Below, in pieces: positions 1,288-39,478 of a stretch of DNA of 64,000 nucleotides. How positions within the stretch are numbered: the first letter of the stretch is position 1; each line of letters begins with the position of its first letter. The notes beneath the pieces are model-generated. The model saw only the letters and a list, made by a program, of their open reading frames with translations. It did not search any database and was not told the DNA's origin. A program made the position numbers and the translations under genes. The stretch is from Myxococcota bacterium. GTDB taxonomy: Bacteria; Myxococcota_A; Bradymonadia; UBA4248. The DNA lies in assembly GCA_045643185.1 (NCBI GenBank), contig JAZUKH010000046.1, positions 10,883 through 74,882 on the forward strand, in the 5' to 3' direction.

Positions 1288-2262
1288 ATGAATGTAAAGC
1301 ATATCTGCACCATCAAAGGCATTCCTGTTGGCGTCAACTTTTCGTTTTTGATTCTGGTCGTGTTGTTGGCCATGTTGATGGGCAATAACAACCTGGTCTA
1401 TGGCATCATTTGTGGGATATGCATTATCATCGCGTTGATGGTTCACGAATTTGGTCACGCGCTGGTTGCGGCACACTATAACCTGAATCCGCAAGTCATC
1501 TTGACCGGGTCAGGCGGGCTGACGATCCACAAGTCGGCGAATGCCAAACAGTCGTTTCTCATTACCCTGATGGGACCGCTGTCTGGGCTAGTTCTGGGCG
1601 GCATCGCGCTCGGCGTGTATTTCGGGCTGGCTGTCTATGCGCCGACGTTTCTTTCGACTTACACGAACTTCGCGAAGTTCCTGGAATACAGCATGTTCAT
1701 CAACCTCGGTTGGGGCATCTTTAACCTGATTCCCATCAACCCCTTGGATGGCGGTAAACTGCTTTCGGCTTTACTGGCCAAGTTTATGGCACCCAAAACG
1801 GCGATCAAAACGAGCGTCGTTGTCAGCACGTTGTGTTGTGTGGCTTTCATCGTGCTTTCTTGCACGATCTGGCGAAGCATGTTCAACCTTTTTGTTGGCT
1901 TTTACCTGTTGATGATCAACTTTTTGTCGGCAAAACAGGTTTTTTCAAGCATTTCGACGCTCAAAAAGGAAAAAGCCAGTCTGCGTGCCGATACGATCTA
2001 CGAAATGGGGATTTCGGCGGCCCGCGATCACCGCTGGAAAGAGCTCGAAATGTATGGTCATCAGCTCAAAGAAGCGTCTTCATCTTCCGACCAGCTCAAG
2101 AGCGCGTATGACTTTTTGACGATCGCTTGTACGAATCAAAAGAAATATGAAGAAGCGTTGAACTATGCGGAGCGCTCGTCTAAAAGCGAGTCGGTTCAGC
2201 GTGCCGTCGACCGTTGTCGTCACCAATTGACGGTCGAAAAAGAAAATAGTACGGATGCGTGA
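1288..2262 (+). CDS. Site-2 protease family (peptidase M50) membrane metalloprotease with a soluble C-terminal domain
   Basis: HEFGH (HExxH) within a predicted TM helix plus the downstream NLIPINPLDGG motif, the two hallmark M50 motifs; multiple hydrophobic segments. Confidence 0.75.
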   Translation: MNVKHICTIKGIPVGVNFSFLILVVLLAMLMGNNNLVYGIICGICIIIALMVHEFGHALVAAHYNLNPQVILTGSGGLTIHKSANAKQSFLITLMGPLSGLVLGGIALGVYFGLAVYAPTFLSTYTNFAKFLEYSMFINLGWGIFNLIPINPLDGGKLLSALLAKFMAPKTAIKTSVVVSTLCCVAFIVLSCTIWRSMFNLFVGFYLLMINFLSAKQVFSSISTLKKEKASLRADTIYEMGISAARDHRWKELEMYGHQLKEASSSSDQLKSAYDFLTIACTNQKKYEEALNYAERSSKSESVQRAVDRCRHQLTVEKENSTDA

Positions 2263-2328: not shown

Positions 2329-3231
2329 ATGAATACTTCCAAACGCGTTATGATCATTGTTGGTTTGGTTATCGTAGTTCTCTGTGTCGTTTTTACGATT
2401 TTTGCGCTTGGTCGCGGCGAAGAGGATGGGGAATGGACCGGATTTGAGCCGTTGGATAGCCAGTTGGCTGTGGTCGATATGTCGTATGCGAAATGGTTTA
2501 AGGATCGCATCGACGTCATGTCGATCCCGGCTGGTCAGCGCGTCGTCTGCGACTGGTTGATGTACAAGTCGTATGCGGTGACGCAACATACCAACATGGG
2601 CGACGCGCTTGAAAAATTCATTGGCAATGATATGGATTTTGCCGTCGATCAGGGTGTGCGTGCCGACTACTGGGCCAGCGTCGCCGCCTGGGAAGAATTC
2701 CTTAAAGCCTACCAGGACGAGAACGCGCGTAAAAAGCTTTTTGAGATCTGCAAAGACGAAGCGCCTGACCTCGAAACGCAATTCAACAACGAGATCATTT
2801 CGTTCAAACAGTTTGCGACCAACGAAGAATTGCTCGACGAAGCCGGTCATTTGAAACCCGACAAGGCTAAACTCGCCCTGTTGCTGCACCGCTACGTGTG
2901 GATCAAAGCCAGTCAGCAGCAGTTCCCCGTGAATGCGATCCAGACACCCGAAGAAGCCATGGCCATGTTCCGTTGGCAGGTCGAAGCGTCGCACATGGCG
3001 GCGGATAAAAAGATCGAAAAGCTGCATGAGACAAAGACGAGCCACCCTGGTGCTTACGATTACACGTATGCAGAAGCCGTCATTGACATTCAAAACGGCG
3101 ATTACGCCGCAGCCTGTCTGCTTTTGAGTCCCATCGCGACCGGCGATGGCATGGTCGATCCATATCAACAGAATTTGTATCGTCGTGCCATGAAAGCCAT
3201 TAAGGCGCTTGACGCTAACGCGTGCCCATGA
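2329..3231 (+). CDS. Hypothetical protein with N-terminal membrane anchor
   Basis: Signal-anchor-like N-terminus (MIIVGLVIVVLCVVFTIFAL), RBS AAGGAAACA; same orientation as its neighbours; an antisense ORF was rejected. Confidence 0.5.
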   Translation: MNTSKRVMIIVGLVIVVLCVVFTIFALGRGEEDGEWTGFEPLDSQLAVVDMSYAKWFKDRIDVMSIPAGQRVVCDWLMYKSYAVTQHTNMGDALEKFIGNDMDFAVDQGVRADYWASVAAWEEFLKAYQDENARKKLFEICKDEAPDLETQFNNEIISFKQFATNEELLDEAGHLKPDKAKLALLLHRYVWIKASQQQFPVNAIQTPEEAMAMFRWQVEASHMAADKKIEKLHETKTSHPGAYDYTYAEAVIDIQNGDYAAACLLLSPIATGDGMVDPYQQNLYRRAMKAIKALDANACP

Positions 3232-3267
3232 GGCATAGATGACCGTGCGGCAACATAGTGTCGTGTC

Positions 3268-3347
3268 AGGCCCCCGCCAGGCGAAGGGGTAGCGGCGTAT
3301 TGGCGTTTCAACGACAATAGCCGCGTAGGGGGAGACTTCCCCCTCAA
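3268..3347. repeat. REP/MITE-like intergenic repeat, copy 1 (family found 7x in the window)
   Basis: Core GCCAGGCGAAGGGGTAGCGGCGTAT - spacer - ATAGCCGCGTAGGGGGAGACTTCCCCCTC, shared with copies at 7.8, 22.7, 33.9, 35.4, 54.7 and 57.3 kb. Confidence 0.85.
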
Positions 3348-3488
3348 AATAAAAATTCCATCGATTTTCTGCTTAACTTTTGGCGATCCGTGAATAAACT
3401 AACGCCACGCCCGAAACAGTTGGTTTGTGCTGATGCACGAAATGACTGTGTTTTTACAACTTAAGACGTCTCAGAAGGAGAATGGACC

Positions 3489-4049
3489 ATGAGTGAAGAA
3501 GTGAAAAACGAAGAAGTGAAAGTCGACGAAGTGAAAGCTGCAGAAGCGAAAGCCGACGAAGCCAAAGCTGAAGACGCCATTAAAGACACCAAGGACCTGA
3601 TCGTTGAACAGGCGAATGCGCTCAAAGGCAAATTGAGCAACCTGTTTGGTAAAGCGACGGAGATCGGTAATTCGGTCGTCGAGACTGTGAAAGAAAAAGC
3701 CGAAAAAGGCAAAGAAATGTATGACGACAAACGTCGTGACTGGGAAGCCAACGATGTTTATCGCAAACTCGGCAAACGCGTGGCCAAATTGGCAAAACGT
3801 GGCGAATTGGTTTTGCCGGAATCTTGCCAGCAGTACCTCGATGCTTTGGATGACATCTATGGTGAAAACGGCGATGATGACGACAACAGCGGCGAATGCT
3901 GTTGCTGCAGCGACGACAAATGCTGCAGCGACGACAAATGCTGCTGCGACGACAAATGCTGCTGCGACGACAATGCCTGCAAGTGCTGCGACAAATGCAC
4001 GGGGGAAGCCGGTTGCGACTGCGGCTGCGACGATTGCAAATGCAAATAA
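3489..4049 (+). CDS. Small acidic protein with a C-terminal metallothionein-like poly-cysteine tail
   Basis: RBS AAGGAGAAT; the last ~60 aa hold ~27 Cys in CC/CCC clusters (CCCCSDDKCCSDDKCCCDDKCCCDDNACKCCDKC...CDCGCDDCKCK), encoded by ~15-nt tandem repeats. Confidence 0.6.
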   Translation: MSEEVKNEEVKVDEVKAAEAKADEAKAEDAIKDTKDLIVEQANALKGKLSNLFGKATEIGNSVVETVKEKAEKGKEMYDDKRRDWEANDVYRKLGKRVAKLAKRGELVLPESCQQYLDALDDIYGENGDDDDNSGECCCCSDDKCCSDDKCCCDDKCCCDDNACKCCDKCTGEAGCDCGCDDCKCK

Positions 4050-4083
4050 CGCTCGCGAATTAGATCAAATCTAAATGATAAAG

Positions 4084-4118
4084 CCTCATCATGCGCTTGT
4101 GTGATGGGGCTTTTTTAG
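4084..4118 (+). terminator. Rho-independent terminator
   Basis: GCCTCATCA...TGATGGGGC hairpin followed by TTTTTT. Confidence 0.6.
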
Positions 4119-4236
4119 TTTTTGTCATTTTTGTGACCGAATTGTTCAAAAAACTGTTTCAGCTCAAGGCGTTAATCGCTAAAAGAGTATTTTTGGCTCG
4201 TTTGAGTTTTGTCGTGTAAAACGAGGAGAAAATAAG

Positions 4237-5772
4237 TTGCAGGATCTAAGAGCAGATGTCGTTATTATTGGCGGCGGTGTCGCGGGATTGACGAGCGCAT
4301 TGGGTATGCGCGGTCGTCGCGTGATCGTATTGACGAAAGCGGAATTTGGCAAAGGCGGTTCGACGCCGATCGCACAGGGCGGTATTGCCTGTGCCATGGG
4401 GAAAGATGACGATCCGAAGCTGCACGCAGCGGATACGCTTGTGGCCGGGGACGATCTTTGTATTTCGGACTGTGTGGATGTTTTGACGAGCGAAGGCCCA
4501 GCGGCGATCCGCCATTTGATCGAAGAAGGCGCTGAGTTTGACCGCACGCCGGATGGCGAACTTTCGTTTGGTCGTGAGGCGGCGCACAGCCGTCGTCGCA
4601 TTTTGCACGCGCATGGCGACAGCACCGGTGCCGAAGTTGAACGCGCGCTCGTGGCGGCCGTTCGACGCGTGGATTACATTCAGATCATTGAAAAGTGCTA
4701 CGTGGGCGATCTGCTGATGGATGGCGATCGCGTGGTCGGTGCGTATGGCGTCGTGAACGGCGAAGTCGTGCGAGTGTTTGCGCCGGCCGTGGTGTTGGCG
4801 TGTGGCGGCATTGGTCGCATCTACCAATACACGACGAATCCTGTCGAATCGGTCGGTGACGGACTCGCCATTGCGGCGCGTGCTAACGCCGTTTTGTCGG
4901 ACGTCGAGTTCGTTCAGTTCCATCCGACGGCGCTCAACACGAAGTTGGATCCGTTGCCGCTGTTGACCGAAGCTCTGCGCGGTGAAGGCGCGACGCTCCA
5001 CACCGAAGATGGCACGCGCTTCATGGTCGGACTGCACAAAGATGCCGAACTTGCGCCGCGCGATGTCGTGGCTCGCGGCATTTGGAAGCAACAGATGGCT
5101 GGGCACTTTGTGACGCTCGACGCGCGCCACATCGGCGCTGAATTTCCTAACAAATTCCCAACGGTCTACGGCTTTTGTCAGCAGGCCGGCATTGACCCGC
5201 GTGTCGATTGCCTGCCCGTCACTCCGGCTGCCCACTATCACATGGGCGGCGTTTCGGTCGATCAGAACGGACACACCACCGTCAAAGGCTTATGGGCTTG
5301 TGGCGAAGTTTCAGCCACGGGCGTGCACGGCGCTAACCGATTGGCCAGCAACTCGTTGCTCGAAGGCCTCGTCTTTGGCGCCCGTGTCAGTCAGAATATC
5401 GCCGAAATCTCGAATTTTGACGAAAAACTCGGTCAGACCCAGACAGAATGCCCACTTTGCAACACGTTTGTCACGGCTGATGAGGCCGATGATGTCCAAA
5501 AACTTCGCGAAACCATGTGGAATCACGTCGGACTCGTCCGAAATGAAGACGGCATGAAAACAGCACTCGCCTTCTTTGACCAGTTGCGTGAAAAACATGC
5601 CCACCCGTCCATGATGCTCAGAAACATGGTCGATGCGGCCACCATGATCACACAGGCTGCCCGTGAACGCCAGGAAAGCCGCGGCGGTCACTATCGCTCC
5701 GATTTTCCAAACCATTCCGACGTCGCCGAACATCATCCGTTCGTCTACACCGGCAATGGTCCGTGGATCTAG
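4237..5772 (+). CDS. nadB: L-aspartate oxidase (FAD flavoprotein, NadB/SdhA family); TTG start
   Basis: N-terminal FAD fold VVIIGGGVAGLTSAL, AQGGIA motif, C-terminal ESRGGHYRSDFP; 511 aa is NadB-sized rather than SdhA-sized; RBS GAGGAGAA. Confidence 0.75.
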   Translation: MQDLRADVVIIGGGVAGLTSALGMRGRRVIVLTKAEFGKGGSTPIAQGGIACAMGKDDDPKLHAADTLVAGDDLCISDCVDVLTSEGPAAIRHLIEEGAEFDRTPDGELSFGREAAHSRRRILHAHGDSTGAEVERALVAAVRRVDYIQIIEKCYVGDLLMDGDRVVGAYGVVNGEVVRVFAPAVVLACGGIGRIYQYTTNPVESVGDGLAIAARANAVLSDVEFVQFHPTALNTKLDPLPLLTEALRGEGATLHTEDGTRFMVGLHKDAELAPRDVVARGIWKQQMAGHFVTLDARHIGAEFPNKFPTVYGFCQQAGIDPRVDCLPVTPAAHYHMGGVSVDQNGHTTVKGLWACGEVSATGVHGANRLASNSLLEGLVFGARVSQNIAEISNFDEKLGQTQTECPLCNTFVTADEADDVQKLRETMWNHVGLVRNEDGMKTALAFFDQLREKHAHPSMMLRNMVDAATMITQAARERQESRGGHYRSDFPNHSDVAEHHPFVYTGNGPWI

Positions 5773-7775: not shown

Positions 7776-7813
7776 GCGGTATTTCTCGTCTGATTCTGGC
7801 GGCGATCGTATTT

Positions 7814-7886
7814 TGAGGGGGAAGTCTCCCCCTACGCGGCTATTGGCGTTCGCCAATACGCCGCTACCCCTTCGCCTGGCAGGGCC
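7814..7886. repeat. REP/MITE-like intergenic repeat, copy 2 (inverted orientation)
   Basis: GAGGGGGAAGTCTCCCCCTACGCGGCTAT-TGGCGTTCGCCAAT-ACGCCGCTACCCCTTCGCCTGGC. Confidence 0.85.
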
Positions 7887-11721: not shown

Positions 11722-12180
11722 CTACTTGTTTTCTGAGTTGTCGTATATTTCATTATATAAATCTCTGGCTTTTTGTAAGAAGAATAGCATGTATGATTCG
11801 TTTGAATCAATACCATTATTCAGAGTGCTTATCATGTCATTTAAAACATAAAACCCCGTGTTTGCGTATTCTTCAGCATATTGGTACGCTAAAGAATCAT
11901 CATCCAAATTTTCAATTTCGTTATCATGGATAAGTTGATTGATAAGAATTGAGCGCAAAGTGGCTCTTTTGAAATAATCCAGAGTTTCTGAGCGGATAAA
12001 GTCCACGCGTTTTTTTAGTGGTTTTCGTTGACCATTTTCAATGCCAATAGCGACTGCAAATAGAAACAGATCACTTCGATCACAAGATGACTTACCCAGT
12101 TTCATGAAGTCTAAATCATCGATTTGTGGTATGATTTTAGATTGAACGTATGAATCAATATAAATTCTTGGTTCTTGCAT
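11722..12180 (-). CDS. Hypothetical protein, last gene of the AT-rich 6-gene operon
   Basis: AT-rich codon usage matching the island; start immediately follows the upstream stop (12180/12183). Confidence 0.5.
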   Translation of the reverse strand: MQEPRIYIDSYVQSKIIPQIDDLDFMKLGKSSCDRSDLFLFAVAIGIENGQRKPLKKRVDFIRSETLDYFKRATLRSILINQLIHDNEIENLDDDSLAYQYAEEYANTGFYVLNDMISTLNNGIDSNESYMLFFLQKARDLYNEIYDNSENK

Positions 12181-12182
12181 GA

Positions 12183-14168
12183 TTAAATCTCCTTAATGGC
12201 ATTGGTGTAGATTTCATCAATTGGTTTGAGAATGTGTTTGCTTGCTACAATCGTATTTGTGAATTGAGCTTGTATTTCTTTTGAAAATTCAGAGGGTGTT
12301 AGGGCAAGAATGATTTGCTTTGTTTTGCTGATTTCGACAAGTGATTTTGCAAAATTGGATCGATTTTCTGTATCGACACGACCAACAGGAGTATCAATAA
12401 ATAATAAAGAATCAAAACCAGATATTCTATGCATGGCAAGTGTAAAAGCTAAGGCTAATAATTGGCGTTCTGCGGATGAACCGACTAAATCTGTATTATT
12501 TAAATGTTTATTGTAAACGGCCATGTTATAGTCTTCATCGAGCGTAATGCGATCAAATGTATTCTTTTTCCACTCTAACTTTTCAAAAATCCGCATAGTT
12601 TCGGTTTCAATTTGTATTCGAAGGTCTGAGATGCATTTTGTTTTTAATTTTTCAAGAAGATCTAATGCATTGGTCGCAAATAGATAGTAATTATTAACAA
12701 TCTTATTGCTTTCTTGTTTCTGAGTGGCTTCAATTAGTTTTGTTTGATATTCCTTAATCTTTTCTTGGCATTTGTTCAGTTTAGGTGTTAATTGTCCAAT
12801 TTCTTCAGAATCCTTAGCAATTTGATTACGGTAAAAATTTCGTCGTTCAATACAATTTGTAATTTCATCAGGGTCAGGACATAGCTTAATTTTATTGATA
12901 AGTTCTTCCTTGGTTAACTCACATTCTCGTATTTTTTGTTCGATGTGAGCCTGTTCTTTTATAAGACTATTGATTTGATCATTCAAATCGCGTGGCCTTG
13001 AACACCATTTTTCAAGATCACTTTTGATTTCAACGAGTTTGTGTGATACTGATGATGAAAAATTAATCTGGTCAAGTAAATTTTGAATTTTCTGGATAGC
13101 TGTTTCGGATAAGTGACTACCACAGATTTTACATTGTTCATCTTTTAATGTATCATTTAGTACGCTGATATCAATACGAGGAGGAAGTTGTCCTTTGGTG
13201 CTGGCGTCGATGATGTAATGGTATACGGATTGATTTGTTTTATATAAGATAATTGAAATAAATAGATCTCGTGTTAATTTATAAAGTTTGGATTTGTTTG
13301 TATTTAAAGTTTTGTTGAAGTCATCGATCTGGGATTGGGTTAAGTCGAGCTGCTTTTGTTCGTCAGCGATGCATTCCATGCCAGAAATTTGTCTTGTGAG
13401 TCGTTCGAATTCTCTATTTGAAATAGCTCTATCCTGATTTAAGGTGTTTATTTTTCTTTCATATTCATCTTTTGATTGTTTACAATTGTTTAATTCTGTT
13501 TCGATTTCTTGACATTTTGGAATGTCTTTAGAGATTTGTTTGCAATATGAACTTATTACGCCTCGTAAATCGTTTTCTAGGTTTTCTAGATCAGTGATTT
13601 TTGACATCTTATAAATAGAACTTCTTACATTTTTTTGTTGTTGACTATCGAAATAGTCTGATAACTGCTCACCATCAAAAAAGAAGTATCCTCGAATAGC
13701 TTGGGGAAATTTTGAACGAATTATTTCTGTGGCTTCAGCATTCGTTTTAACATCTGATTGGTTTGTTAATAAATTAGTTTGTGTGACAATAAACTCATCT
13801 GCACCAGTCATTTCTGTTCTGACGCTGTATTTTAAAGATCGTTCTATTGTCAATTTTATGTTTTCTATTGTGCTGCGCGCTATTATCACAACTTTTACTG
13901 CGACAAACTCATCACCAATGCCTTTTGTTTCAAGAATCGATTTTGCATTGCAAATTGATTTTTTATCATTTCTATACGTTAATGACCCAATATGTGGCTC
14001 ATCATTATATAAACACCAATTGATGGCATTTAACAGGTTGGTTTTGCCAACGCCGTTACGACCGATAATGATGTGTAGGTCAGCATTGCCCTGATTGGGC
14101 TGATCAAATTGAAAGAAAGCATCCTGATATTGACGGTAGTTAATGATTTTGACGGAATCAATTCTCAT
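12183..14168 (-). CDS. SMC-like Rad50/SbcC-family ATPase with a central CxxC zinc hook
   Basis: N-terminal Walker A GRNGVGKTNLLNAINWCLY; long central coiled coil containing CKICGSHL; C-terminal LLFIDTPVGRVD (D-loop/Walker B region). Confidence 0.7.
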   Translation of the reverse strand: MRIDSVKIINYRQYQDAFFQFDQPNQGNADLHIIIGRNGVGKTNLLNAINWCLYNDEPHIGSLTYRNDKKSICNAKSILETKGIGDEFVAVKVVIIARSTIENIKLTIERSLKYSVRTEMTGADEFIVTQTNLLTNQSDVKTNAEATEIIRSKFPQAIRGYFFFDGEQLSDYFDSQQQKNVRSSIYKMSKITDLENLENDLRGVISSYCKQISKDIPKCQEIETELNNCKQSKDEYERKINTLNQDRAISNREFERLTRQISGMECIADEQKQLDLTQSQIDDFNKTLNTNKSKLYKLTRDLFISIILYKTNQSVYHYIIDASTKGQLPPRIDISVLNDTLKDEQCKICGSHLSETAIQKIQNLLDQINFSSSVSHKLVEIKSDLEKWCSRPRDLNDQINSLIKEQAHIEQKIRECELTKEELINKIKLCPDPDEITNCIERRNFYRNQIAKDSEEIGQLTPKLNKCQEKIKEYQTKLIEATQKQESNKIVNNYYLFATNALDLLEKLKTKCISDLRIQIETETMRIFEKLEWKKNTFDRITLDEDYNMAVYNKHLNNTDLVGSSAERQLLALAFTLAMHRISGFDSLLFIDTPVGRVDTENRSNFAKSLVEISKTKQIILALTPSEFSKEIQAQFTNTIVASKHILKPIDEIYTNAIKEI

Positions 14169-14365
14169 TTTGAAATCTCCTTAGATGTAACATTTCTATT
14201 GATTTCGTTATAAGTCTTTTCTATGATCTTTTGACAAGTCTTTTTATTGTGGATTCTATCATTGAATTGATAATTAATTAGCCTTTGTAATAACTCTTGA
14301 ATGCTTTTGTCGCCACGAGTAACTTCAAGAAGATTCTTTTCGATGAGTTCATTAAGATTTCCCAT
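14165..14365 (-). CDS. Small 66-aa protein, translationally coupled upstream of the SMC-like ATPase
   Basis: ATGA overlap with the downstream gene; lies inside the operon. Confidence 0.4.
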   Translation of the reverse strand: MGNLNELIEKNLLEVTRGDKSIQELLQRLINYQFNDRIHNKKTCQKIIEKTYNEINRNVTSKEISK

Positions 14366-14377
14366 AATATTCTCCTT

Positions 14378-16486
14378 TTATATTAAACCAGTTTTGGTTA
14401 TATCGGCAACCGCCTGGCTTCCGTTTATTGCTTCAGTAGCTATAGCAAAGATTCGTTTCATTTCTTTTTTGAAGATTCGCTTATCAAAATTTCTTTCTTC
14501 ATTTGACCAATCAGAATAATCAGGAGTGACAACAAAATCATCTATATAGGCAAGCTGTTTGTTGCCGTTATCACGTAGCACTCTACCTAAACGCTGAATA
14601 TACTCTCTTGCGTTCTCACTACTTGACAATAGAATTGCCCGTGAGGCTGTCTTGATGTCAATCCCTTCGTCCAGACATTTTATCGCAACAAGTATCTGAT
14701 AATAGCCGTTTCGAAATTTTTCAAGGATATCTTCTCTTTCAGATATACCCTTATCATCAATTTTTGTTGATTCGGACTGCGTAAATCGATGGCCAGATAT
14801 ATTAAGCTTAACAAGTAGTTCTTCAACTTTATCTATCTGTTTGTCTGAGACATAGATAATAGTATCACGAATGTCTGAAATTGAGGAGAGAAGAATTTTT
14901 AATGCAGAGATCTTGTGTTCAGCATTTTTAACGATATTTGCTCTTTTGAATAGCAGTTGTTCATATTTTTCATTATTTTCTATGTCATCATCTTTTGTGT
15001 GAATTAATTTGGATAATTTCTTAGTCAGCTTGTTATATTCGCTAGATTCGTTCTCAGTTAAATTGATAGGATATATATTGTATTTATAACTCACAAGAAA
15101 TGTACGATTTGTTACTGGGTTGATTGTTGTTAATGCATCATGTAATGAAAAAGTGAATTCATTGTTCATAAAATACGATTTAAGCAGATTTGTTCCTTCT
15201 TCATCGAACCATCTATCTGGAGTGGCGCTTAAACCGAGCCGATAATCGTATTTATCGAGCAATGACTTTTTGGTTTTGGAGGCTCCCATGCCATGGACTT
15301 CGTCCCCTATAAGCATGGTTTTATAACTATAGGATTTGATAATCTTTATAAAATCATCAGTGCACGCTGAACAGTGTGTTACATAGATAAGAATTTGTTT
15401 ATAAATTCCAAGATTAGCTTTTTGAAGAACACAGTTCAGATCTTTTTTCCAATTTGTGTGGTTACTATCGCAGACAATTGTTTGATCAAATCGAAGTTGG
15501 AGTGAATCGATTTCCTTTTTCCATTGAGATTGGAGTGTAATTTGTGGAATTGCTATGATTGTCAATAATTTTTGACAATTTTGTTGCGCATTTTCAAGAC
15601 ATTTTACTGCTGTGAAGGTCTTTCCTGTTCCAGTGGCCATTTCGAGCAACATAATTCTGTTACATTCGATCCAGTGTTCAATCGCTCTATTTTGATATGG
15701 AAAAGGCAACTTTTCAGATTGAGGCTTTGTAATAATTGATACACTTGTGTGATATCGGTTTTCGCGATATCGATCTAGAGATAGCTTATCATTTTGATAA
15801 TCTTCGCCTCGTTCTATTAGACGTTGTTTGACCGCAGTTGGTAAGTCTATGACTTCTAGCGAAGCGACGCTGTTATTCCACATTGAGTTAAAGTCGTTTT
15901 GGTGTCCTTGAAAGTATTCTCGTTGACCCGCATTCCAATTTTTATATACCTCGAAACGTTCATCATTCCATAACCAACCTGAGGCCGATTCATTGTTTGA
16001 ACCACTAAAAGAAATGCCATAATCGATTGATTTATTGTCGTACAGAATGCCAAACTTTTGATGCATAATGGGATTGTTGGCTGTATTCCTTACGTCTTTT
16101 ACGATAGCTATTTTTATTTGAAGTTTATTATTGGCCAACATCCAGCCAAGTGCTGCAATATGATCATTGAGAAAGTAATCAGGAATGTCTTCGATTGCAG
16201 TGATCATAGATTCTTCTAGAATCTTGTTTTGGTTTTCAATGACATTTTGAATGGTTTTAATATCATCATCACTTAGTTTTGGACATGTAATGAGTCTCAT
16301 GGTGCCACCATTTGCAATAAGCCCACCAATGCCTCGAGCTGCAATAGCTAAACTAGTTGATGAAAAATACCCCGATATTCTGTCATATTTCCTGGCTTCA
16401 CATAGTGCGGGAATATAGAAATCAGAGATCAAGTCGTCTTCTGAGCTTTTATATTGTATTTTTATGGGCAAATCCTTCAAGCTCAT
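14378..16486 (-). CDS. Fusion of an N-terminal PLD (HKD-motif) nuclease domain to a C-terminal SF2 DEAD/DEAH-box helicase
   Basis: IMHQKFGILYD...GSNN HKD-type motif (single copy); helicase motifs MATGTGKT (I), IGDEVH (II), LSATP (III), QRLGRVLR (VI). Confidence 0.75.
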   Translation of the reverse strand: MSLKDLPIKIQYKSSEDDLISDFYIPALCEARKYDRISGYFSSTSLAIAARGIGGLIANGGTMRLITCPKLSDDDIKTIQNVIENQNKILEESMITAIEDIPDYFLNDHIAALGWMLANNKLQIKIAIVKDVRNTANNPIMHQKFGILYDNKSIDYGISFSGSNNESASGWLWNDERFEVYKNWNAGQREYFQGHQNDFNSMWNNSVASLEVIDLPTAVKQRLIERGEDYQNDKLSLDRYRENRYHTSVSIITKPQSEKLPFPYQNRAIEHWIECNRIMLLEMATGTGKTFTAVKCLENAQQNCQKLLTIIAIPQITLQSQWKKEIDSLQLRFDQTIVCDSNHTNWKKDLNCVLQKANLGIYKQILIYVTHCSACTDDFIKIIKSYSYKTMLIGDEVHGMGASKTKKSLLDKYDYRLGLSATPDRWFDEEGTNLLKSYFMNNEFTFSLHDALTTINPVTNRTFLVSYKYNIYPINLTENESSEYNKLTKKLSKLIHTKDDDIENNEKYEQLLFKRANIVKNAEHKISALKILLSSISDIRDTIIYVSDKQIDKVEELLVKLNISGHRFTQSESTKIDDKGISEREDILEKFRNGYYQILVAIKCLDEGIDIKTASRAILLSSSENAREYIQRLGRVLRDNGNKQLAYIDDFVVTPDYSDWSNEERNFDKRIFKKEMKRIFAIATEAINGSQAVADITKTGLI

Positions 16487-17214
16487 ATATTAATTCTCCA
16501 GTCGATGCAATCCATTAGCTGAATAAGGTAGGATCCAGATAATGCGAATGTTAAGACCTGCTTCGTGTTAGCTTGGCGTCTTACTGCAGTTTTGTATGAA
16601 ATCGAAGATAAACAACTGCTATAGCTCCAAAATCCTTTGGTGTATATTGATTTTAAGATCGTTTGTATGAAAATATTAGAAAATAAAAGCTTTTTTATAA
16701 GCGATGAACGTATTGTTAACGGGTAGATGAGCATTTGATTGCTAAGTGCTGTTATCCTTACTTTGATTGGCTTTTCTTCGCTAATGGTTACCAATTTCAT
16801 CATGGCCGCAAGCTTAGCATGGTTTTCACCATATTTTAGTTGAGCTCCTGGTGTTTTGGATTGTATCAATTGGTAGCCTAAATCTTTAAATCCCATGCCT
16901 TGAGGCATGAATGACAAAATCTCACTTACTCTGAATATGCCATGTTCAAAATTGCTAAAACATGGTATGTCGTTTGCCAATAAAGTAACTTCTTTTATAT
17001 TATTGTCGTTAAAAATCTGATTGATAAAAGCCTCTTCAGAATACTCATTTAGTTTTTGTATGAAAATTTCTAATTCGTCTTTTGAAGCATTGTTGATAAT
17101 GTTATTTATTTCTGGTTCGTTGGTTAAGAATTTATGCAAAAAATCGTCATAAAATTGAGAATTGTAGGCCTGATCGAGATTGTTAGTATTCGCATCTGGA
17201 TATGTGTTATTCAT
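16483..17214 (-). CDS. Hypothetical protein (no recognisable motif), operon member
   Basis: ATGA overlap with the downstream gene; AT-rich island codon usage. Confidence 0.5.
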   Translation of the reverse strand: MNNTYPDANTNNLDQAYNSQFYDDFLHKFLTNEPEINNIINNASKDELEIFIQKLNEYSEEAFINQIFNDNNIKEVTLLANDIPCFSNFEHGIFRVSEILSFMPQGMGFKDLGYQLIQSKTPGAQLKYGENHAKLAAMMKLVTISEEKPIKVRITALSNQMLIYPLTIRSSLIKKLLFSNIFIQTILKSIYTKGFWSYSSCLSSISYKTAVRRQANTKQVLTFALSGSYLIQLMDCIDWRINI

Positions 17215-17216
17215 TA

Positions 17217-18395
17217 CTAAACCTCATTATATCTCATGTCGAAATACTGCTTCGCTATTTGTGGATAGTCTCGCTCAATCTCGAGCAGAGCTTTCATTGA
17301 AGAACAGTAAGTACCTTGTGTTTTGTGAAGAGCCTGATTAGCTTCACAGAACTGGCGAAAACTCATTTTTTTGAGCATGTTTGGTTGGTTGCACCAGCGT
17401 GCGATGCTGACATATAAACTTGAATATGGCGAGATTTTCCAGGGTGTTTCGTTTATATTCTGGTATCGCATGATATAGGGAAGACATTTATAGCGAAGAA
17501 GCAGTTCAATGCGTTTGAATGCATTGGCAATATCCGTGGCATCGGTGCTTTTGAAGCCTACTAGTACATAGAATTTTACACTCGTTGATTGAGTATATTT
17601 TCGAATTAATTTCAGTTTTTGCTCGATAAGCTTATAATCTTCTACGTTATCGAAGGCGAACGTGAAGTCACCATCGTAGTGTGCGTTAAACAGCATTTCA
17701 CATTTTTCTTCGGTGAGTATGCGTTCGTCCAGGCCTTGTTTGAATTTAAAGGGTTTATTGGTGTCGATGAGCTTTTGGAGTAGCGTTTTCCATTTGGGAT
17801 AACCGAGAAAATTGTCGTCTAAAAGGCAAATCTTTTTTAGGTTCTGGTCTAAAAACTCCTCCAAAGGACTATGTTCGAAAACATGGTCATATTTTTGATT
17901 CACGCAGAATGGACAGCGTCTGAAACAGCCTCTTGTCAAAAATCCAATCGAATAATTTGTGTATTCCTTGAATTGAGTCATGAATGATGACTTATTAAAG
18001 TTCTTCCCTTCTTTTAATTTGGTTAATTCGGCCTTCTGGACTTCGTCGGCTATCCATGCGTCATAAAGATGATAATCTGGACAACAGTGTTCGATTTCTG
18101 GGAGGAGGTTAGGTGCTTTGTCGAAATAAAATCCAGTTCCACCAATAGAAACATTTTTATGTTTCGTCAGGTTGATGGGAAAGAGTGGATCTGTTCCAAC
18201 AGGTGTGTCTGTAAATACTTTGGAAACAAAGACATGCTCATAGGCCTCAAGATTTTTGTAGTCAAGTTTGAGTTCGACTGCTTTGCCTTGGGCTTTGTAG
18301 TATGCCGAGAGTTTTTCGCTTGCGAGATTGGGAAAGCGATGTTTATCGCGGGCGATCAGATCTGCATCAATGATGGCAATGGTCATGATAGCCAT
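17217..18395 (-). CDS. Radical-SAM-like protein (CxxxCxxC), possibly with an N-terminal B12-binding-like domain; first gene of the operon
   Basis: GFLTRGCFRRCPFCVNQ contains C-x3-C-x2-C at about residue 155; RBS AGGATGG. Confidence 0.5.
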   Translation of the reverse strand: MAIMTIAIIDADLIARDKHRFPNLASEKLSAYYKAQGKAVELKLDYKNLEAYEHVFVSKVFTDTPVGTDPLFPINLTKHKNVSIGGTGFYFDKAPNLLPEIEHCCPDYHLYDAWIADEVQKAELTKLKEGKNFNKSSFMTQFKEYTNYSIGFLTRGCFRRCPFCVNQKYDHVFEHSPLEEFLDQNLKKICLLDDNFLGYPKWKTLLQKLIDTNKPFKFKQGLDERILTEEKCEMLFNAHYDGDFTFAFDNVEDYKLIEQKLKLIRKYTQSTSVKFYVLVGFKSTDATDIANAFKRIELLLRYKCLPYIMRYQNINETPWKISPYSSLYVSIARWCNQPNMLKKMSFRQFCEANQALHKTQGTYCSSMKALLEIERDYPQIAKQYFDMRYNEV

Positions 18396-18436
18396 CCTTG
18401 ATCCTGAAAAAGCTGGTTATTTATGAATAATCTTCG

Positions 18437-18449
18437 CCCCCCCCCCCCC
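18437..18449. repeat. Homopolymeric C13 tract in the leader/promoter region of the island operon
   Basis: CGCCCCCCCCCCCCCG read directly; lies between a TATAAT-like box (minus strand, ~18460-18465) and the start codon. Confidence 0.8.
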
Positions 18450-18814
18450 GGTCTGGCTAATTATATTCGGTTTTCTCATTAGTATGTTTCCAGTGTCTAA
18501 ATGTTCAGTTGATTTGGTTAGTTAAGTGCTTTCCTGTACGAAACAGTGTTTCTGTGTGCAATAGCTCAAGCTAGTTTAGTTGATCAGTTCTCGGTGATCA
18601 ATGATTTTTTTCTCTTTTCACAAATTATGTGCATATATGTAATAAATGTGATCGCGCATCTGCGAATAGTCTGTCAGCAGAAATGTACTGCTTAAGATAC
18701 GGAGTACAATTTTGGTGGGTATGCTATTCATTTGTTTGAAACAGATTCTGATACTTCACGTTTGGATATGAAAAAACTTGTCCCGAGAAGCCATGGACGA
18801 CGCTCGCGTCGTCT

Positions 18815-19405
18815 TTAGATTTCGTGTTTTTCGACGAGCGTGCGGATGATGCAGGCGGGCGTGTAGAATTCACCGGCGTTTTGGCCTTCCTGACTGGTGA
18901 ACTTAGAGAGGTAGTATTCATAGGTTCGCCCGAGCAAATCTTTGTCGTGCATCTGCGCGTTCATGTCGATATTGGTAAAGAGATTGATGACTTCGCCGAG
19001 TTTTCGTTTGTCAGAGTTCGGGGCGCGCAAAGTTCTTGGGCAGAATGCTGGCAAGTGAAGTGTTTTAGCCTTCGATGGAGGGCAAGGCCTGATCGATCGT
19101 CGTGCCGTTTGTCGCGTTGTGCGCATCGGTTGCAATGACTTTCTAGCGCGCATTTTCGGGCACAAAAAAACGTGCTCTGCTACGTATTCATCTCGATCTT
19201 CTTCAAACCCCTAACCCTCGCCTTCTTCGACGAGCTCCCGATATCGTGCTTCAAAGCGATCGCTGATGTGTTTTAGGAAGATGAGCCCGAGGATAACGGA
19301 TTTATATTCAGCTGCATCGATGTTGCCGCGAAGATTGTCCGCCGCTTTCCAGAGTTTGTCTTCAAATCCAAGTTCTGTTGTTGAGGTTTGGGTTTTCTTT
19401 GCCAT
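18815..19405 (-). pseudogene. hsdM: Decayed type I restriction-modification methylase (hsdM) remnant in two frames
   Basis: Fragment A (19211-19405) LGFEDKLWKAADNLRGNIDAAEYKSVILGLIFLKHISDRFE matches the HsdM_N domain; fragment B (18815-19165, other frame) LLGRTYEYYLSKFTSQEGQNAGEFYTP matches the start of the N6-MTase domain, then stops. Confidence 0.7.
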
Positions 19406-19672
19406 GGTTTTTGTTTTTGTAAATTGTAGGTTGTAGCCATCGAGCCCATCTTGCGTTCCGCTTCGACGGACCCGATTATTATTGTTATGGACAGTTTTAT
19501 AGAGACTCAATAGCAGCGCCTTCCAGGCGCCTTTTTCGGGGATTGTTTTACTCCGGAGGCGGTCGCTACGCGCCCACCCCCGGTTATGCAAGACATCGGC
19601 TTCCAGCCGAATATCTATGGCCATAACAATAATTGCTCATTGTAGTGTCGCCTTCGGTGTGCGCGAAGCGCA

Positions 19673-19714
19673 AATAATTGCTCATTGCTCATTGCTCATT
19701 GCTCATTGTAGTGT
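19673..19714. repeat. Heptamer tandem repeat (ATTGCTC)x4-5, with related copies at 19630-19648 and 20035-20058
   Basis: AATAATTGCTCATTGCTCATTGCTCATTGCTCATTGTAGTGT read directly. Confidence 0.8.
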
Positions 19715-19933
19715 TGTTCGGTAGCCCACGGCGAGTATCGCTGGAAGGCTGTAAAACTTGTATCGATACGTTTTCCCGTCATCGGCAGTTTGTGCAAAAA
19801 ATGCATAAACTGAATTTTCGTCGAGTTCGTGCTCGGAAAAGATGTTTTTAAGGTGCTTTGCGGCAACAGTTCGATCGATCCCAAACAACTGCCCAATCCC
19901 TTTTGGCGTGAGCCAAACCTGATGATCCTGCAC
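19703..19933 (-). pseudogene. N-terminal fragment of a RhuM-family (virulence/Fic-associated) protein
   Basis: GKTYRYKFYSLPAILAVGYR resembles the conserved RhuM N-terminal motif; only 76 aa remain where full-length proteins are ~300 aa. Confidence 0.5.
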
Positions 19934-20343
19934 ACGGACTTCGATGCCGTTTTCATCGTGTTCTCGCGTAAATTTCAGAAAGTCGGCGACCTGATTTCGG
20001 ATGTATGGAAGAAGCCATGTTTATCTCCCGCTAATCATTGCTCATTGCTAATTCGACTTTTGCAAGCCGACTATTGTTATTATAGCACATAATACGCGTC
20101 ATTTTCTGTCGCAATTCTTTAGCAGGATCGCCTTGAGCCGCAAAAATTTGCGGCTCTACGGCTCGCTGGCGGCGCTATTGCCTGCGTCGCTACGCTTGCC
20201 GATACGCCCTTTGTCGCCGGCAATCAGCTTCGCGAAGCTCGCGGATACGAACGCAGCCTCTGTCTTTACGCTAGATCGCCGCCCAGTCTGTGCGCATGCA
20301 GTCGTACAATCTGAATTAAAATCGACCTGAATAAACATCGTGA

Positions 20344-20817
20344 TCATCTTATAAAGAACTTATAATAGTCGCTTTCCTGTGGATATTTCCATGGGTCTGT
20401 TCGATGATTGTAGTACAAATTGCATTCTCTCCCTATAGATATTTTTGTGTTGGTAACATTAGATGTGTTCCATTTGTTCAGAGGTCTGTTAAATGCTGCT
20501 GCACCACTAAACATCTTCTGCATGTTTGTAACATTGGAAACGTCCCAATTGTTAATATCTGAGTTCATTTTTAAAGCGTCACTGAACATTTCGGACATAT
20601 CCATGACGGCAGACAAATCAGGAACGTCCTTTGCTTTAATTACTGCATTTTTAGTTTGAGCCATAAAATAATGCATGCTTCTCCATACGTTTGTTCCCCA
20701 CTGGTCTACACTGAGAAGGGAACAATCATCGTCGTCGAATAGGCGCATCGAAGGTATGGTTCCAAGCAATACAAGCCGAACAAGTCGCGCAGTCTTGCAT
20801 GTCGAAGGCACGAACAA
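20344..20817 (-). pseudogene. Fragment of a surface protein with 26-residue repeats (BspA/Listeria-lipoprotein type)
   Basis: FSDALKMNSDINNWDVSNVTNMQKMFSGAAAFNRPLNKWNTSNVTN matches the F..A..FN..I..WDVSNVT.M..MF repeat; short, AT-rich. Confidence 0.5.
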
Positions 20818-20949
20818 ATCGCGTCCGCTCGCCCAATCTCAGCCTGCTTGCCTTCGGCTTGGCTACGGCTGAGATTTTGAGTTTCTGACCAGCCAAAGCT
20901 TCCAGGCTGAGTTGTCACAAGTTGTGGGGCGCGGCGAGCAGTGCCATCT

Positions 20950-21303
20950 TTACACTTCGTGTTTTTCGACGATATAATCTTCAATATTGCGTTTTTCGTG
21001 CGAGAAATTTACGCCCACCAGATACGTCGTTTTGTGTCCCAGGGTGAATGGAAGGACATAATCGTTATCTTTGATCTGATCGAGTGCAAGTTGGGCTGTT
21101 TTGTTGTATTTGAATTCAAAAATATATAAATAATTGCCAGTTTCCATGAGCAGATCGATGCGGCCATCAGCGATTTTATATTCTGCATGGACATAATATC
21201 CGGTCAGTGTTGCCAATAAATAGATAAAATTCTGGAAATGTAGTTCGCGATCGTAGCTGATATCGTATGGTGCACCAGCCAGAAGCACGGTGATGCGTTT
21301 CAT
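20950..21303 (-). CDS. PD-(D/E)XK nuclease-like C-terminal module, split from the upstream AAA-ATPase-like gene
   Basis: Aligns with the C-terminus of the intact paralog at 40484-42067 (IADGRIDLLMETGNYLYIFEFKYNK vs GYADIAFIPY...IVELKRN). Confidence 0.5.
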   Translation of the reverse strand: MKRITVLLAGAPYDISYDRELHFQNFIYLLATLTGYYVHAEYKIADGRIDLLMETGNYLYIFEFKYNKTAQLALDQIKDNDYVLPFTLGHKTTYLVGVNFSHEKRNIEDYIVEKHEV

Positions 21304-21325
21304 AAACGCGTCAATATTACCGGAT

Positions 21326-22480
21326 TCAAGTTCCTTGGAGTGTGCTTTTACAATAGAATGGTACCAGATAATCTATAAATCCTTCTTCAACTTCGCGATT
21401 GGGAAATTTTAATGTATATTCATCAAAATCCGGATCGTAATCTGATATGGTTAAATAACCAGTCTGATAAAGGATCGGAACGGGATCCTCGCTGTCGAAA
21501 TCGATATTTTCCAAATTACTTCCTTTGGTCGTAATTCCGTTAATTTCGTCGAATTGCCAGTGATTTTTATGAATCATTTTTGCCAGAATATCTGGTGTAC
21601 CTGTCGCAAACCAGAATTTGCCAAAGCGAAGACTGTTAAAGGCACTGAGCAGGCTGAATGGATTATACATGCCCGGTCCCTCGGCAGTGAAATGATAGCC
21701 ATCATAGAGTTCTTTTAGCTTCGATTTGGTCTTTTCAATCGAGATTTTCTGCTTTTGAGCGAGCGCTTCGATGTCATCTTCAAATTGCGTTAAAACTTCG
21801 TTTTCAGAAATGCCGCAAATTGCAGAAAACTGTTCATCCAGAGAAATGTCTTGCAGGTTGTTGAGTTCACTGAAAACACTGAGTTTTCCCATTTTGCTCA
21901 CACCGGTGATGAACACAAATCGGATATGTGCGTCTTCGCTTTTCAGGTTGCCGTACAGCCCTCGCAAGGTCGTTCTGTGTTTTTCACGAAGCTCGGGATA
22001 GTCCATGGATTCGACGATCGGTTTTTCGTATTCATCGATCAGGATGACGACTTTTTGGCCGGTCTTTTGGTGTATCGTTTGAATCAGGCGCTGAAAGCGG
22101 ACGTTGAGTTCCAAATCAGCAGGTTCAAGGCCATATTGTTTTTCCCATTCATGAAACTGATAATTCAGTTTGGATCTAAGTTCGCCCTCTTCCGCATAAT
22201 TCGCGCCGTTAAAATCGATCCGCAAAACTGGATATTTGATCCAGTCGTGTTCGATCTGTGCCATGGCGAGCTGGTTGAACAGTTCTTTTTTTCCCTCGAA
22301 ATAGGCTTGTAGCGTGGACAGAAGCAGGCTTTTTCCGAATCGACGCGGGCGTGCAAGGAAATAGTAGCCTTTGTCCTTTGCGATTTCGTAAACCAAGTCC
22401 GTTTTATCGACGTAATAGAAACCGTCTTCACGAATATTTTCAAATGTTTGAATGCCGATCGGGTATTTTTTCTTAGCCAT
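21326..22480 (-). CDS. Predicted AAA-ATPase-like (PF09820-type) protein, truncated or split before its nuclease module; start at MAKKKYPIGIQ
   Basis: YPIGIQTFENIREDGFYYVDKT...FLARPRRFGKSLLLSTL family signature; the upstream extension in the ORF track is read-through of a repeat element. Confidence 0.6.
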   Translation of the reverse strand: MAKKKYPIGIQTFENIREDGFYYVDKTDLVYEIAKDKGYYFLARPRRFGKSLLLSTLQAYFEGKKELFNQLAMAQIEHDWIKYPVLRIDFNGANYAEEGELRSKLNYQFHEWEKQYGLEPADLELNVRFQRLIQTIHQKTGQKVVILIDEYEKPIVESMDYPELREKHRTTLRGLYGNLKSEDAHIRFVFITGVSKMGKLSVFSELNNLQDISLDEQFSAICGISENEVLTQFEDDIEALAQKQKISIEKTKSKLKELYDGYHFTAEGPGMYNPFSLLSAFNSLRFGKFWFATGTPDILAKMIHKNHWQFDEINGITTKGSNLENIDFDSEDPVPILYQTGYLTISDYDPDFDEYTLKFPNREVEEGFIDYLVPFYCKSTLQGT

Positions 22481-22656
22481 AGTCAACCTCACAGGTGTGC
22501 ACGCGCTACCAATCCGTATTATAGCATACATTTTGTTGGTATTAGTACGTGGAGACGTGAGTCTCGAAGTTGAGACGTGCAGGTCATTTTGACCAAGCCA
22601 AGCCGCTAGGTTGAGGTGCACTACTGACTGGTGTGGGCAGCGTGCCATGGGGTTAT

Positions 22657-22752
22657 GGGCCCTGCCAGGTGAAGGGGTAGCGGCGTATTTTTTCCATGAT
22701 GCCACGCAGCATCATGGGAAAAATAGCCGCGTAGGGGAAGGCCTTCCCCTTC
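22657..22752. repeat. REP/MITE-like intergenic repeat, copy 3
   Basis: GCCAGGTGAAGGGGTAGCGGCGTAT-[palindrome TTTTTTCCATGATGC..GCATCATGGGAAAAA]-TAGCCGCGTAGGGGAAGGCCTTCCCCTTC. Confidence 0.85.
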
Positions 22753-22755
22753 ACA

Positions 22756-33842: not shown

Positions 33843-33950
33843 AGGCCCTGCCAGGCGAAGGGGTAGCGGCGTATTTTTCCCACGTAGTTGCGTAGCATGC
33901 TACGCAGCAACGTGGGAAAAATAGCCGCGTAGGGGGAGACTTCCCCCTCC
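33843..33950. repeat. REP/MITE-like intergenic repeat, copy 4
   Basis: GCCAGGCGAAGGGGTAGCGGCGTAT-[47-nt palindromic spacer]-ATAGCCGCGTAGGGGGAGACTTCCCCCTC. Confidence 0.85.
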
Positions 33951-33977
33951 AAAATTGACAATTTAAGAGGTTTGAAC

Positions 33978-35342: not shown

Positions 35343-35363
35343 ATAGGTCGTTTGGGATTTGGG

Positions 35364-35437
35364 AGGGGGAAGTCTCCCCCTACGCGGCTATTGGCATCAT
35401 CGCCAATACGCCGCTACCCCTTCGCCTGGCGGGGCCT
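35364..35437. repeat. REP/MITE-like intergenic repeat, copy 5 (inverted)
   Basis: GGGGGAAGTCTCCCCCTACGCGGCTAT-TGGCATCATCGCCAAT-ACGCCGCTACCCCTTCGCCTGGC. Confidence 0.85.
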
Positions 35438-39197: not shown

Positions 39198-39478
39198 AAA
39201 ACTCCTTATGCGAATCGATAACCATGTCACACAAGGCCAGTGTGACCAAACGAGCGACGTTTTTTGAAACATTTTATGCCATTTAACAAGAATAATCGCG
39301 GTCCGAAATCGAAAGTTGCACCTTGACGCTTGCAAAGGCGAAAATATTTGGTATAAGCAGCGTTTCTGCTAACACTTATGACGCGGCGCGTTATGGTATT
39401 GCAGATGATCAAGCAGGTGAAAAGCGCGACTGCGCTTTGAAGCAAGCCAAATTGACTGTTTTTTATGTAGGAGATTAC

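Follow-up and report, generated by a model that had tools for sequence, protein, structure and literature searches.

Among bacterial proteins, SlyD, HypB, UreE, and the GroES of Helicobacter combine a folded protein with a disordered His/Cys-rich C-terminal tail that stores or buffers metal. The length of these tails varies widely by species, and they are His-rich, directed to Ni or Zn, and borne by well-characterised chaperones or GTPases. True metallothioneins are rare in bacteria and fall into very few families (SmtA/BmtA and MymT), SmtA (Zn/Cd) and MymT (Cu(I)) both being cytoplasmic Cys-rich sequestering proteins (PMC7558416). In Tetrahymena, the Cd-inducible metallothioneins of subfamily 7a, MTT1, MTT3, and MTT5, display CC and CCC clusters that are rare among metallothioneins, and the Tetrahymena MTT proteins are built hierarchically from short repeated modules, a modularity proposed to permit a fast expansion of capacity (PMC1808422). 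Here, we analyse a gene located at positions 3489 to 4049 of a 64,000-nucleotide (nt) stretch of contig JAZUKH010000046.1 from a Myxococcota bacterium (assembly GCA_045643185.1), the whole stretch being called the window and the gene the target, whose product ends in a poly-Cys tail that may act like a metallothionein.

Translation of the target on the + strand gives a protein of 186 amino acids (aa) that matches exactly the sequence quoted in a preliminary description of this DNA, and the open reading frame (ORF) is a genuine gene, equipped with a ribosome-binding site and a terminator and having about 45 relatives that share a conserved core (Table 1). Neither a signal peptide nor a transmembrane segment is found in the protein, which is predicted to be small and cytoplasmic. 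Its tail contains 21 Cys, 16 Asp, and 7 Lys, no His and no aromatic residue (F/W/Y), and has an isoelectric point (pI) of 4.05; Cys accounts for 35% of the tail (21/60) and 12% of the whole protein (22/186), so that the figure of about 27 Cys previously given for the C-terminal 60 aa has to be lowered to 21. The CC, CCC, and CCCC clusters with DDK or DDN between them are present as described, the census being one CCCC, four CCC, nine CC, and eight CxC, with Lys adjacent to Cys. In the AlphaFold2 (AF2) model, the predicted local distance difference test (pLDDT) score of the tail is 46-57 and no structure is predicted. The metallothionein-like character that had been attributed to the tail on account of its vicinal Cys is thus supported at the level of sequence hallmarks, namely its Cys content, its CC/CCC/CxC motifs, the Lys next to Cys, the lack of His and aromatics, and predicted disorder.

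The repeated part of the tail is encoded by an in-frame tandem array whose unit, TGCTGC[A/T]GCGACGACAAA, reads CC[S/C]DDK, the whole array encoding CCSDDK-CCSDDK-CCCDDK-CCCDDN. This repeat had been taken for a 15-nt one; Tandem Repeats Finder (TRF) gives a period of 18 nt, and what remains of the earlier statement is that the 15-mer GACGACAAATGCTGC is the invariant portion of the 18-nt unit. Three exact copies of this 15-mer lie at 3912, 3930, and 3948, with an 18-nt spacing, while about 0.27 matches with at most 2 mismatches are expected by chance and three were reached in 0 of 100 shuffles. Downstream of the array come 26 more, non-repetitive residues with 10 additional Cys (ACKCCDKCTGEAGCDCGCDDCKCK), and the tail is therefore not merely a collapsed or expanded repeat. 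The Cys density of the tail is far beyond chance: the probability of at least 21 Cys in 60 aa is about 3e-15 at the (inflated) window Cys frequency of 3.8%, and the maximum per 40 aa is 17 Cys in the target compared to 9 in the next densest ORF of the window. Two overlapping frames that run across the repeat, AAATTN (3721-4074) and LLRRQM (3896-4063), were rejected as shadows of the conserved Cys frame.

The part preceding the tail had been viewed as a single acidic, coiled-coil-like domain of about 125 aa, and this has to be revised, as it is made of two parts: an acidic segment (aa 1-44, pI 4.3) and a basic helical core (aa 45-125, pI 8.7). The acidic segment is of low complexity, has a low pLDDT, differs in length among relatives, and carries its own 15/30-nt repeat at the 5' end of the gene (3495-3574), that is, at the opposite end from the Cys array. 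The core reads ...KGKE-x6-REREANEIYRKLGKKVYKLVxRGELxLPE[S/C]C-x-KYIxAL-x2-LY in consensus; G95 is invariant, R83, L94, E106, and P110 are conserved in at least 90% of the members, and the LPE[S/C]C motif is retained. More precisely, the core includes a cationic amphipathic helix (aa 85-108, YRKLGKRVAKLAKR; hydrophobic moment 0.57-0.60), the loop GELVLPESC, and a short last helix. With the family alignment as input, the AF2 model is confident in the core only (pLDDT 89-94 for aa 71-120), where it shows a long helix (60-103), a GELVLPES turn, and a short helix (111-124), and it leaves the N-terminal acidic segment unstructured. A helix such as that at aa 85-108 would typically lie on the surface of anionic membranes or associate with partners that are acidic.

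Homologues were sought with a word-indexed search of 5.8 billion proteins, an exhaustive phmmer search of 1.84 billion cluster representatives, and a profile search restricted to the core. The searches returned 6, 22, and 14 relatives, to which cluster members are added, and together recovered just a few dozen clusters. The window protein itself is absent from the searched collection, and its best relatives are 53-61% identical; the identity of the core is 34-61% across many independent assemblies in which synteny is conserved. All members come from metagenomes or metagenome-assembled genomes (MAGs) labelled Myxococcota, Myxococcales, or Proteobacteria, and the databases name them only 'hypothetical protein' ('MAG: Proteobacteria bacterium'), without a precomputed Pfam domain. 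Five species-representative genomes contain the gene, all of them MAGs (Myxococcales, Myxococcota, or Proteobacteria), one being from dairy-cattle colon.

Searches of Pfam, NCBIfam, and PDB, by sequence and by profile, with the protein and the family profile found nothing above threshold. The YtxH-like family PF12732 aligns with aa 32-76 at E=4e-4 and 21.1 bits, under its 37.5-bit cut-off, and is matched by just 2 of 26 family members, always below threshold, so the protein does not qualify as YtxH-like. A Foldseek comparison of the AF2 model with PDB gave one meaningless match (E=7.7). A search of the 5.8 billion proteins with the tail only gave no match at E<=1e-3, 21 candidates sharing words with the query; this null result speaks mainly for rarity, composition filtering probably suppressing true family tails as well. 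Finally, the family is undescribed in the literature searched on poly-Cys bacterial tails, on YtxH combined with cysteine, and on metallothionein-like C-terminal domains. It is thus an orphan family confined to one uncultured (gut) bacterial lineage. An outlier, P0027 (locus L013, 1948-2370), possesses a helical N-terminal part and an 11-Cys tail of repeated CDCTDEK-like units, and lies between an upstream PRK-family kinase and a downstream polysaccharide-synthesis protein, with neither of the two partner genes described below; it is a distant relative or else a product of convergence.

Within the family, the tail is the most changeable part. Among 45 members, the number of tail Cys ranges from 0 to 25, the window protein being the second highest with 21, and 31 members keep at least 4. 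Relatives that have the N-terminal domain and lack the Cys tail, a search for which had been proposed earlier, do exist: 11 of the 45 have at most one tail Cys, in tails that are simply acidic. Many short tails follow the pattern SGEQxAC-x-C-x4-C-x-C...KDA, with invariant Cys positions and varying intervening residues, and this short CxCx4CxC tail looks like the basal state. Separate lineages have independently expanded distinct in-frame Cys-rich units of 18, 21, or 27 nt (Table 1).

The expectation that the repeat number differs across strains is borne out at two levels. L001 and L008, two loci from independent assemblies, have identical DNA over about 490 nt up to the array; inside the array, an indel of exactly 36 nt (2 units) and two substitutions set them apart. 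Besides, three clusters at 90% identity contain variants with the same or nearly the same N-terminal ~120 aa and with 2 to 6 units (Table 1). Copy number thus differs between near-identical strains, as in contingency-type repeats; since the indels are in frame, the changes alter tail length and do not operate as on/off switches. Pairwise differences between units are exclusively synonymous in L001 (11 synonymous, 0 non-synonymous) and L009 (8 and 0), which is consistent with selection on the peptide, and none of the arrays of the window, L001, L006, L008, L009, and L010 is interrupted by a frameshift or a stop. Taken together, the retention of at least 4 Cys in most members, the invariance of CxCx4CxC, the Cys-rich and in-frame character of all three unit types, and the synonymous-only differences of L001 and L009 support selection for the Cys tail.

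The target is also the last gene of a conserved trio. In every locus with enough flanking DNA, it is preceded, in the same direction, by a gene for an M50-family (site-2-protease type) intramembrane zinc metalloprotease and then by a gene that we call X300. The trio is found in the window, L001-L006, L008, L011, and L012, and partly in L009 and L010; M50 orthologues lie two genes 5' of the target in L001-L006, L008, L011, and L012, a position that is kept when the outer flanks change. The ribosomal protein genes rpsF-rplI lie upstream in most loci and not in L006, L011, and L012; as these three loci keep the trio with other flanks, the trio is the conserved unit and not the ribosomal genes, whose association was rejected as mere lineage synteny. 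In an alignment of seven X300 orthologues, a hydrophobic anchor is seen at the N-terminus and W, Y, and C residues are conserved. There is no gap between the stop of the upstream gene and the start of the target in L002, L006, and L014, the two being contiguous or overlapping. The most distant Cys-free member, P0028 (L014), is preceded by a remote X300 homologue (hhalign 97%, E=4.5e-11) that overlaps its start, M50 not being directly upstream; since P0028 retains an X300 homologue without an adjacent M50 gene, the pairing with X300 is the deepest link.

Considering these data, we assign a probability of roughly one half to the reading in which the target bears a disordered metal-thiolate tail that acts like a metallothionein, with the repeat number setting its capacity, on a membrane-associated adaptor. 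The protein is composed of three parts, the variable acidic N-terminal segment, the ~80-aa conserved helical core, and the disordered C-terminal tail. The core would carry the basic function of the family and be tied to X300 and usually to the protease; it probably has its own function with X300 and the Zn-dependent M50 protease, and this core function is independent of the cysteines, given that 11 of 45 relatives have at most one in their tail. In most members, the tail contains a Cys motif of the CxCx4CxC type, and several lineages have expanded it independently, by in-frame slippage or unequal recombination of the 18-, 21-, or 27-nt units. Its thiolates, aided by nearby carboxylates and with Lys balancing the charge, would form metal-thiolate clusters with soft metal ions, namely Zn(II), Cd(II), or Cu(I), each extra unit bringing 2-3 thiolates and hence room for about one further divalent ion. 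For metallothioneins with 20 Cys, a load of up to 7 ions is documented (PMC7558416), and by analogy the 21-Cys tail could hold about 7, or more if the metal is Cu(I). Through the repeat-number polymorphism, binding capacity would therefore differ between strains, and the amphipathic core may position the metal buffer at the membrane, beside partner proteins. A more tentative, and rather doubtful, extension of this reading sees in the tail a poly-Cys/Asp 'metal sponge' prone to slippage, whose capacity would be reset from strain to strain by the number of units (2 to 6 or more). Joined to the cytoplasmic member of an M50/X300 membrane module, it would serve metal buffering or delivery in a new envelope-associated system of an uncultured gut lineage, and the target would be an undescribed bacterial metallothionein-like type.

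Part of what defines a metallothionein is found in the tail: Cys fractions of about 15-35% in CxC, CC, and CxxC arrangements are typical, and the tail lies within this range; metallothioneins have few or no aromatics and His in their Cys-rich region, and both are absent from the target tail and from nearly all Cys-rich tails of the family. Nevertheless, several observations weigh against a metallothionein-like role. A classical metallothionein is of low molecular weight and binds metal with nearly its entire chain, whereas the 186 aa of the target include a folded ~80-aa core and an acidic segment, and hmmscan reports no metallothionein Pfam family, PF02069 included, either for the window protein (E<=10) or for 26 members (E<=0.01). 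A tail with at most one Cys in 11 of the 45 relatives counts on the same side, as does the Asp-rich, anionic nature of the tail, which could favour harder cations or a non-metal function. Genes for metal homeostasis (sensor, efflux pump, chaperone) are missing both from the 64-kb window and from the conserved neighbourhood, and the idea of a metal-resistance island lost weight, as the window has no gene of the CopA, Czc, Ars, or Mer type. In addition, the copy-number variants derive from metagenomes assembled from short reads; at 36-130 nt, the arrays are below the typical read length and should be spannable by single reads. The case for metal binding itself is drawn from the composition of the tail.

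One alternative is that the tail has no selected function and is a tolerated low-complexity appendage, subject to neutral expansion and contraction of repeats, in which Cys would be incidental to an acidic disordered tail. The hypervariable length and sequence of the tail, the existence of members with an acidic tail only, the second unstable repeat at the 5' end of the target gene, and the differences between units of the window array, which are all non-synonymous (S/C, K/N), would agree with such a drift. However, Cys is a rare and reactive residue, and yet three unrelated and independently expanded unit types are all rich in it; the exact CxCx4CxC spacing of the short tails, the synonymous-only differences in L001 and L009, and the uninterrupted frames of the six arrays mentioned above also speak for a constraint on the peptide. 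We therefore regard neutral drift as unlikely.

It is likewise improbable that the tail works as a redox or sulfur device in an anaerobe, be it a sacrificial thiol buffer, a carrier of sulfane sulfur (persulfide/polysulfide), or a set of iron or iron-sulfur (Fe-S) ligands, although on sequence alone such a role is indistinguishable from metal binding. In favour of such a role are the very high density of thiols, the gut origin of at least some relatives, the gut being anaerobic and rich in sulfide, the Asp-rich anionic context, which fits Fe(II)/Fe(III) no less than soft metals, and another conserved Cys or CC pair in the core loop LPE[S/C]C. On the other hand, the canonical Fe-S motif (CxxCxxC...C) is absent, and no thioredoxin, rhodanese, sulfurtransferase, or Isc/Suf gene was found in the conserved neighbourhood.

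A third alternative, which we hold to be very unlikely, would make the target the precursor of a ribosomally synthesised and post-translationally modified peptide (RiPP), with the N-terminal ~125 aa as a leader that the M50 protease would cut off and the Cys tail as a core bearing thiazoles or thioethers; the classes considered were the TOMM/heterocycloanthracins, the ranthipeptides, and the daptides. A conserved N-terminus followed by a hypervariable Cys-rich C-terminus resembles this architecture, and the strain-variable repeats echo the heterocycloanthracins, in which the number of repeats in Cys-Xaa-Xaa cores varies between strains and the precursors are encoded far from their maturases (PMC2674419). 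The adjacent M50 protein also matches the daptide intramembrane protease model of NCBIfam, very weakly (E=0.006, 15.8 bits against a 300-bit cut-off). Nevertheless, no YcaO, radical-SAM, LanM-type, or other maturase gene occurs in the 64-kb window or in the neighbourhoods of at least 10 loci (YcaO, radical-SAM, and LanM being absent from the flanks of L001-L006, L008, L011, and L012), a search that covered the window and the locus flanks while heterocycloanthracin precursors can lie far from their maturases. The putative leader is moreover unusually long, is confidently folded by AF2, and has no NHLP or Nif11 match in NCBIfam, a quarter of the members have no Cys core, and transporter and immunity genes are absent. 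Finally, tandem repeats are prone to mis-assembly and all relatives are metagenomic, but that the tail is an assembly or sequencing artefact, as the preliminary description had envisaged, or that the ORF is not a gene, has a negligible probability, since the array is just 71 nt long, in frame, and followed by a non-repetitive Cys-rich end, the gene has its ribosome-binding site and terminator, and equivalent tails on cores 34-61% identical recur in many independent assemblies with synteny kept.

Table 1. Features of the target gene, its partners, the repeat units of the family, and other genes of the window (coordinates refer to the window unless a locus is named; number of units given for the clusters at 90% identity)
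Feature	Location	Strand	Basis or details
Target coding sequence	3489..4049	+	186 aa, stop codon included; ORF list
Ribosome-binding site AGAAGGAGA	3473..3481	+	read from sequence; GGAG ends 8 nt 5' of ATG
Acidic low-complexity segment EEVKx/EAKAD	3495..3574	+	TRF period 15 (5.3 copies, 78%) and period 30 (2.2 copies, 82%)
Conserved core, aa 45-125	3621..3863	+	alignments; sole region conserved family-wide
Cys/Asp/Lys tail, aa 126-186	3864..4046	+	composition; predicted disordered
In-frame 18-nt tandem array	3903..3973	+	TRF period 18, 3.9 copies, 98% matches, score 128
Intrinsic-terminator-like hairpin and T-run	4080..4123	+	terminator scan; 15-pair stem then TTTAGTTTTT; 31 nt 3' of stop
M50-family (site-2-protease type) intramembrane zinc metalloprotease	1288..2262	+	324 aa, HEFGH; PF02163, E=2e-12, above cut-off
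X300	2329..3231	+	~300 aa, one N-terminal membrane anchor; no Pfam/NCBIfam match; 7-orthologue alignment
Dispersed hairpin repeat GTAGGGGGAGACTTCCCCCTCAAAA	3325..3349	.	in X300-target spacer
Unit CC[S/C]DDK or CCCDDK	window, L001, L008		18 nt
Unit CCCDDDK	L010 (P0001)		21 nt
Unit CCCGKDD	L006 (P0009)		21 nt
Unit CECKCDGDK	L009 (P0031)		27 nt, 6.5 copies at 95%
Units in 90% cluster P0001			P0044: 2; P0045: 5; P0001 and P0043: 6
Units in 90% cluster P0004			P0004: 2; P0047: 3; L001: 4
Units in 90% cluster P0035			P0049: 2; P0035 and P0050: 3; P0048: 4
Downstream predicted lipoprotein	L001 4074-4775; L003 8612-9283; L004 5934-6779; L008 4144-4845; L010 1625-2326		
Downstream predicted lipoprotein, duplicated	L005 7556-8398 and 8414-9130		
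AAA_15/SMC-like ATPase	12183-14168	-	
ResIII/helicase protein with PLD-like nuclease domain	14378-16486	-	
Predicted AAA-ATPase	21326-22705	-	
Predicted AAA-ATPase fused to PD-(D/E)XK nuclease domain	40484-42067	+	
WYL-domain protein	53404-54648	+	

Some features of the immediate neighbourhood deserve mention. The M50 protein bears in addition a C-terminal extension of about 100 aa. In the window, X300 and the target are separated by a spacer of 258 nt that holds one copy of the dispersed hairpin repeat GTAGGGGGAGACTTCCCCCTCAAAA, which may uncouple the transcription of the target from that of the genes before it; a sigma-70 promoter scan of this spacer (3232-3488) found no promoter, and Rfam gave 0 matches over the whole window. 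The window contains four copies of GTAGGGGGAGACTTCCCCCTCAAAA with 0-2 mismatches, whereas 0 are expected by chance: that of the spacer (+), 7811-7835 (-), 33929-33953 (+), and 35359-35383 (-), all outside the long ORFs of a crude map. The first two copies are also alike in their flanks (…CAATAGCCGC…), which suggests a REP-like (repetitive extragenic palindromic) or MITE-like (miniature inverted-repeat transposable) element. On the 3' side of the target, most related loci encode a predicted lipoprotein (223-281 aa, no Pfam match), which the window does not have, nadB (4237-5772) coming directly after the target.

Further away, the window contains a cluster of very large Cys-rich ORFs (42234-46157 (-), 46436-48514 (-), 48615-50357 (-), 33972-35342 (+), 37860-39335 (-), and 59960-63436 (+)), which include products of 1307 aa with 159 Cys, 692 aa with 102 Cys, and 580 aa with 82 Cys. 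Their N-termini are signal-peptide or lipobox-like, Pfam gives weak matches to cEGF, CPL1-like, or Stig1-like models, and the products are probably secreted proteins made of disulfide-rich repeats, without relation to the poly-Cys tail. A block of the minus strand (11722-24651) resembles a defence island and holds, besides the three minus-strand genes listed at the end of Table 1, several ORFs without Pfam match; the AAA-ATPase/PD-(D/E)XK fusion and the WYL-domain protein are of types often tied to mobile or defence functions. Finally, ribosomal protein S6 (188-739, +) has an acidic C-terminal tail (…DDELDELVDDD), and its listed ORF probably begins 5' of the true start codon.

Regardless of metal binding, the present analysis defines an orphan family and a three-gene module (M50, membrane-anchored X300, and target) in an uncultured lineage. 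A repeat-built cytoplasmic tail of 21-25 Cys would add a type to the few bacterial metallothionein families, and the natural alleles with 2, 3, 4, 5, and 6 units on near-identical proteins would offer an unusually clean system in which to relate capacity to module number. In the same way, the allele series could show whether copy number follows the exposure of gut communities to metals.

In terms of concept, the closest counterparts of the target would be the folded bacterial proteins with a disordered metal-binding tail, SlyD, HypB, and UreE, with which it shares a folded domain followed by a disordered, compositionally biased C-terminal tail of variable length. Unlike in these proteins, the tail is rich in Cys and Asp and devoid of His, the carrier domain is an orphan, and the copy-number polymorphism is driven by slippage. 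With SmtA/BmtA (PF02069) and MymT, the target has in common that it is a Cys-rich bacterial protein, cytoplasmic by prediction in its case; SmtA differs in that its fold is zinc-finger-like and its ligands include His besides Cys, MymT is a stand-alone peptide of 4.9 kDa, and both lack the tandem repeats and the helical carrier domain that the target possesses. The Tetrahymena MTT1, MTT3, and MTT5 resemble it in their CC/CCC clusters, in CxC with adjacent Lys, and in their construction from repeated modules. These proteins are, however, eukaryotic and made wholly of Cys-rich modules, without a folded non-metallothionein domain, and they show no sequence homology to the target, whose units are far shorter (6-9 aa) and Asp-rich. 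As for the heterocycloanthracin precursors, they also join a conserved N-terminal region to a strain-variable low-complexity Cys repeat (PMC2674419), but they are short, give thiazole bacteriocins, and need a cyclodehydratase/dehydrogenase operon, none of which is near the target, and the N-terminal region of the latter is a long folded domain. The YtxH-like family (PF12732) shows a weak likeness, between aa 32-76 and the helical part of its model. Although probably metallothionein-like in its mode of action, the target falls outside every known metallothionein sequence family and represents a new protein family, set in a conserved trio of genes that is new as well.

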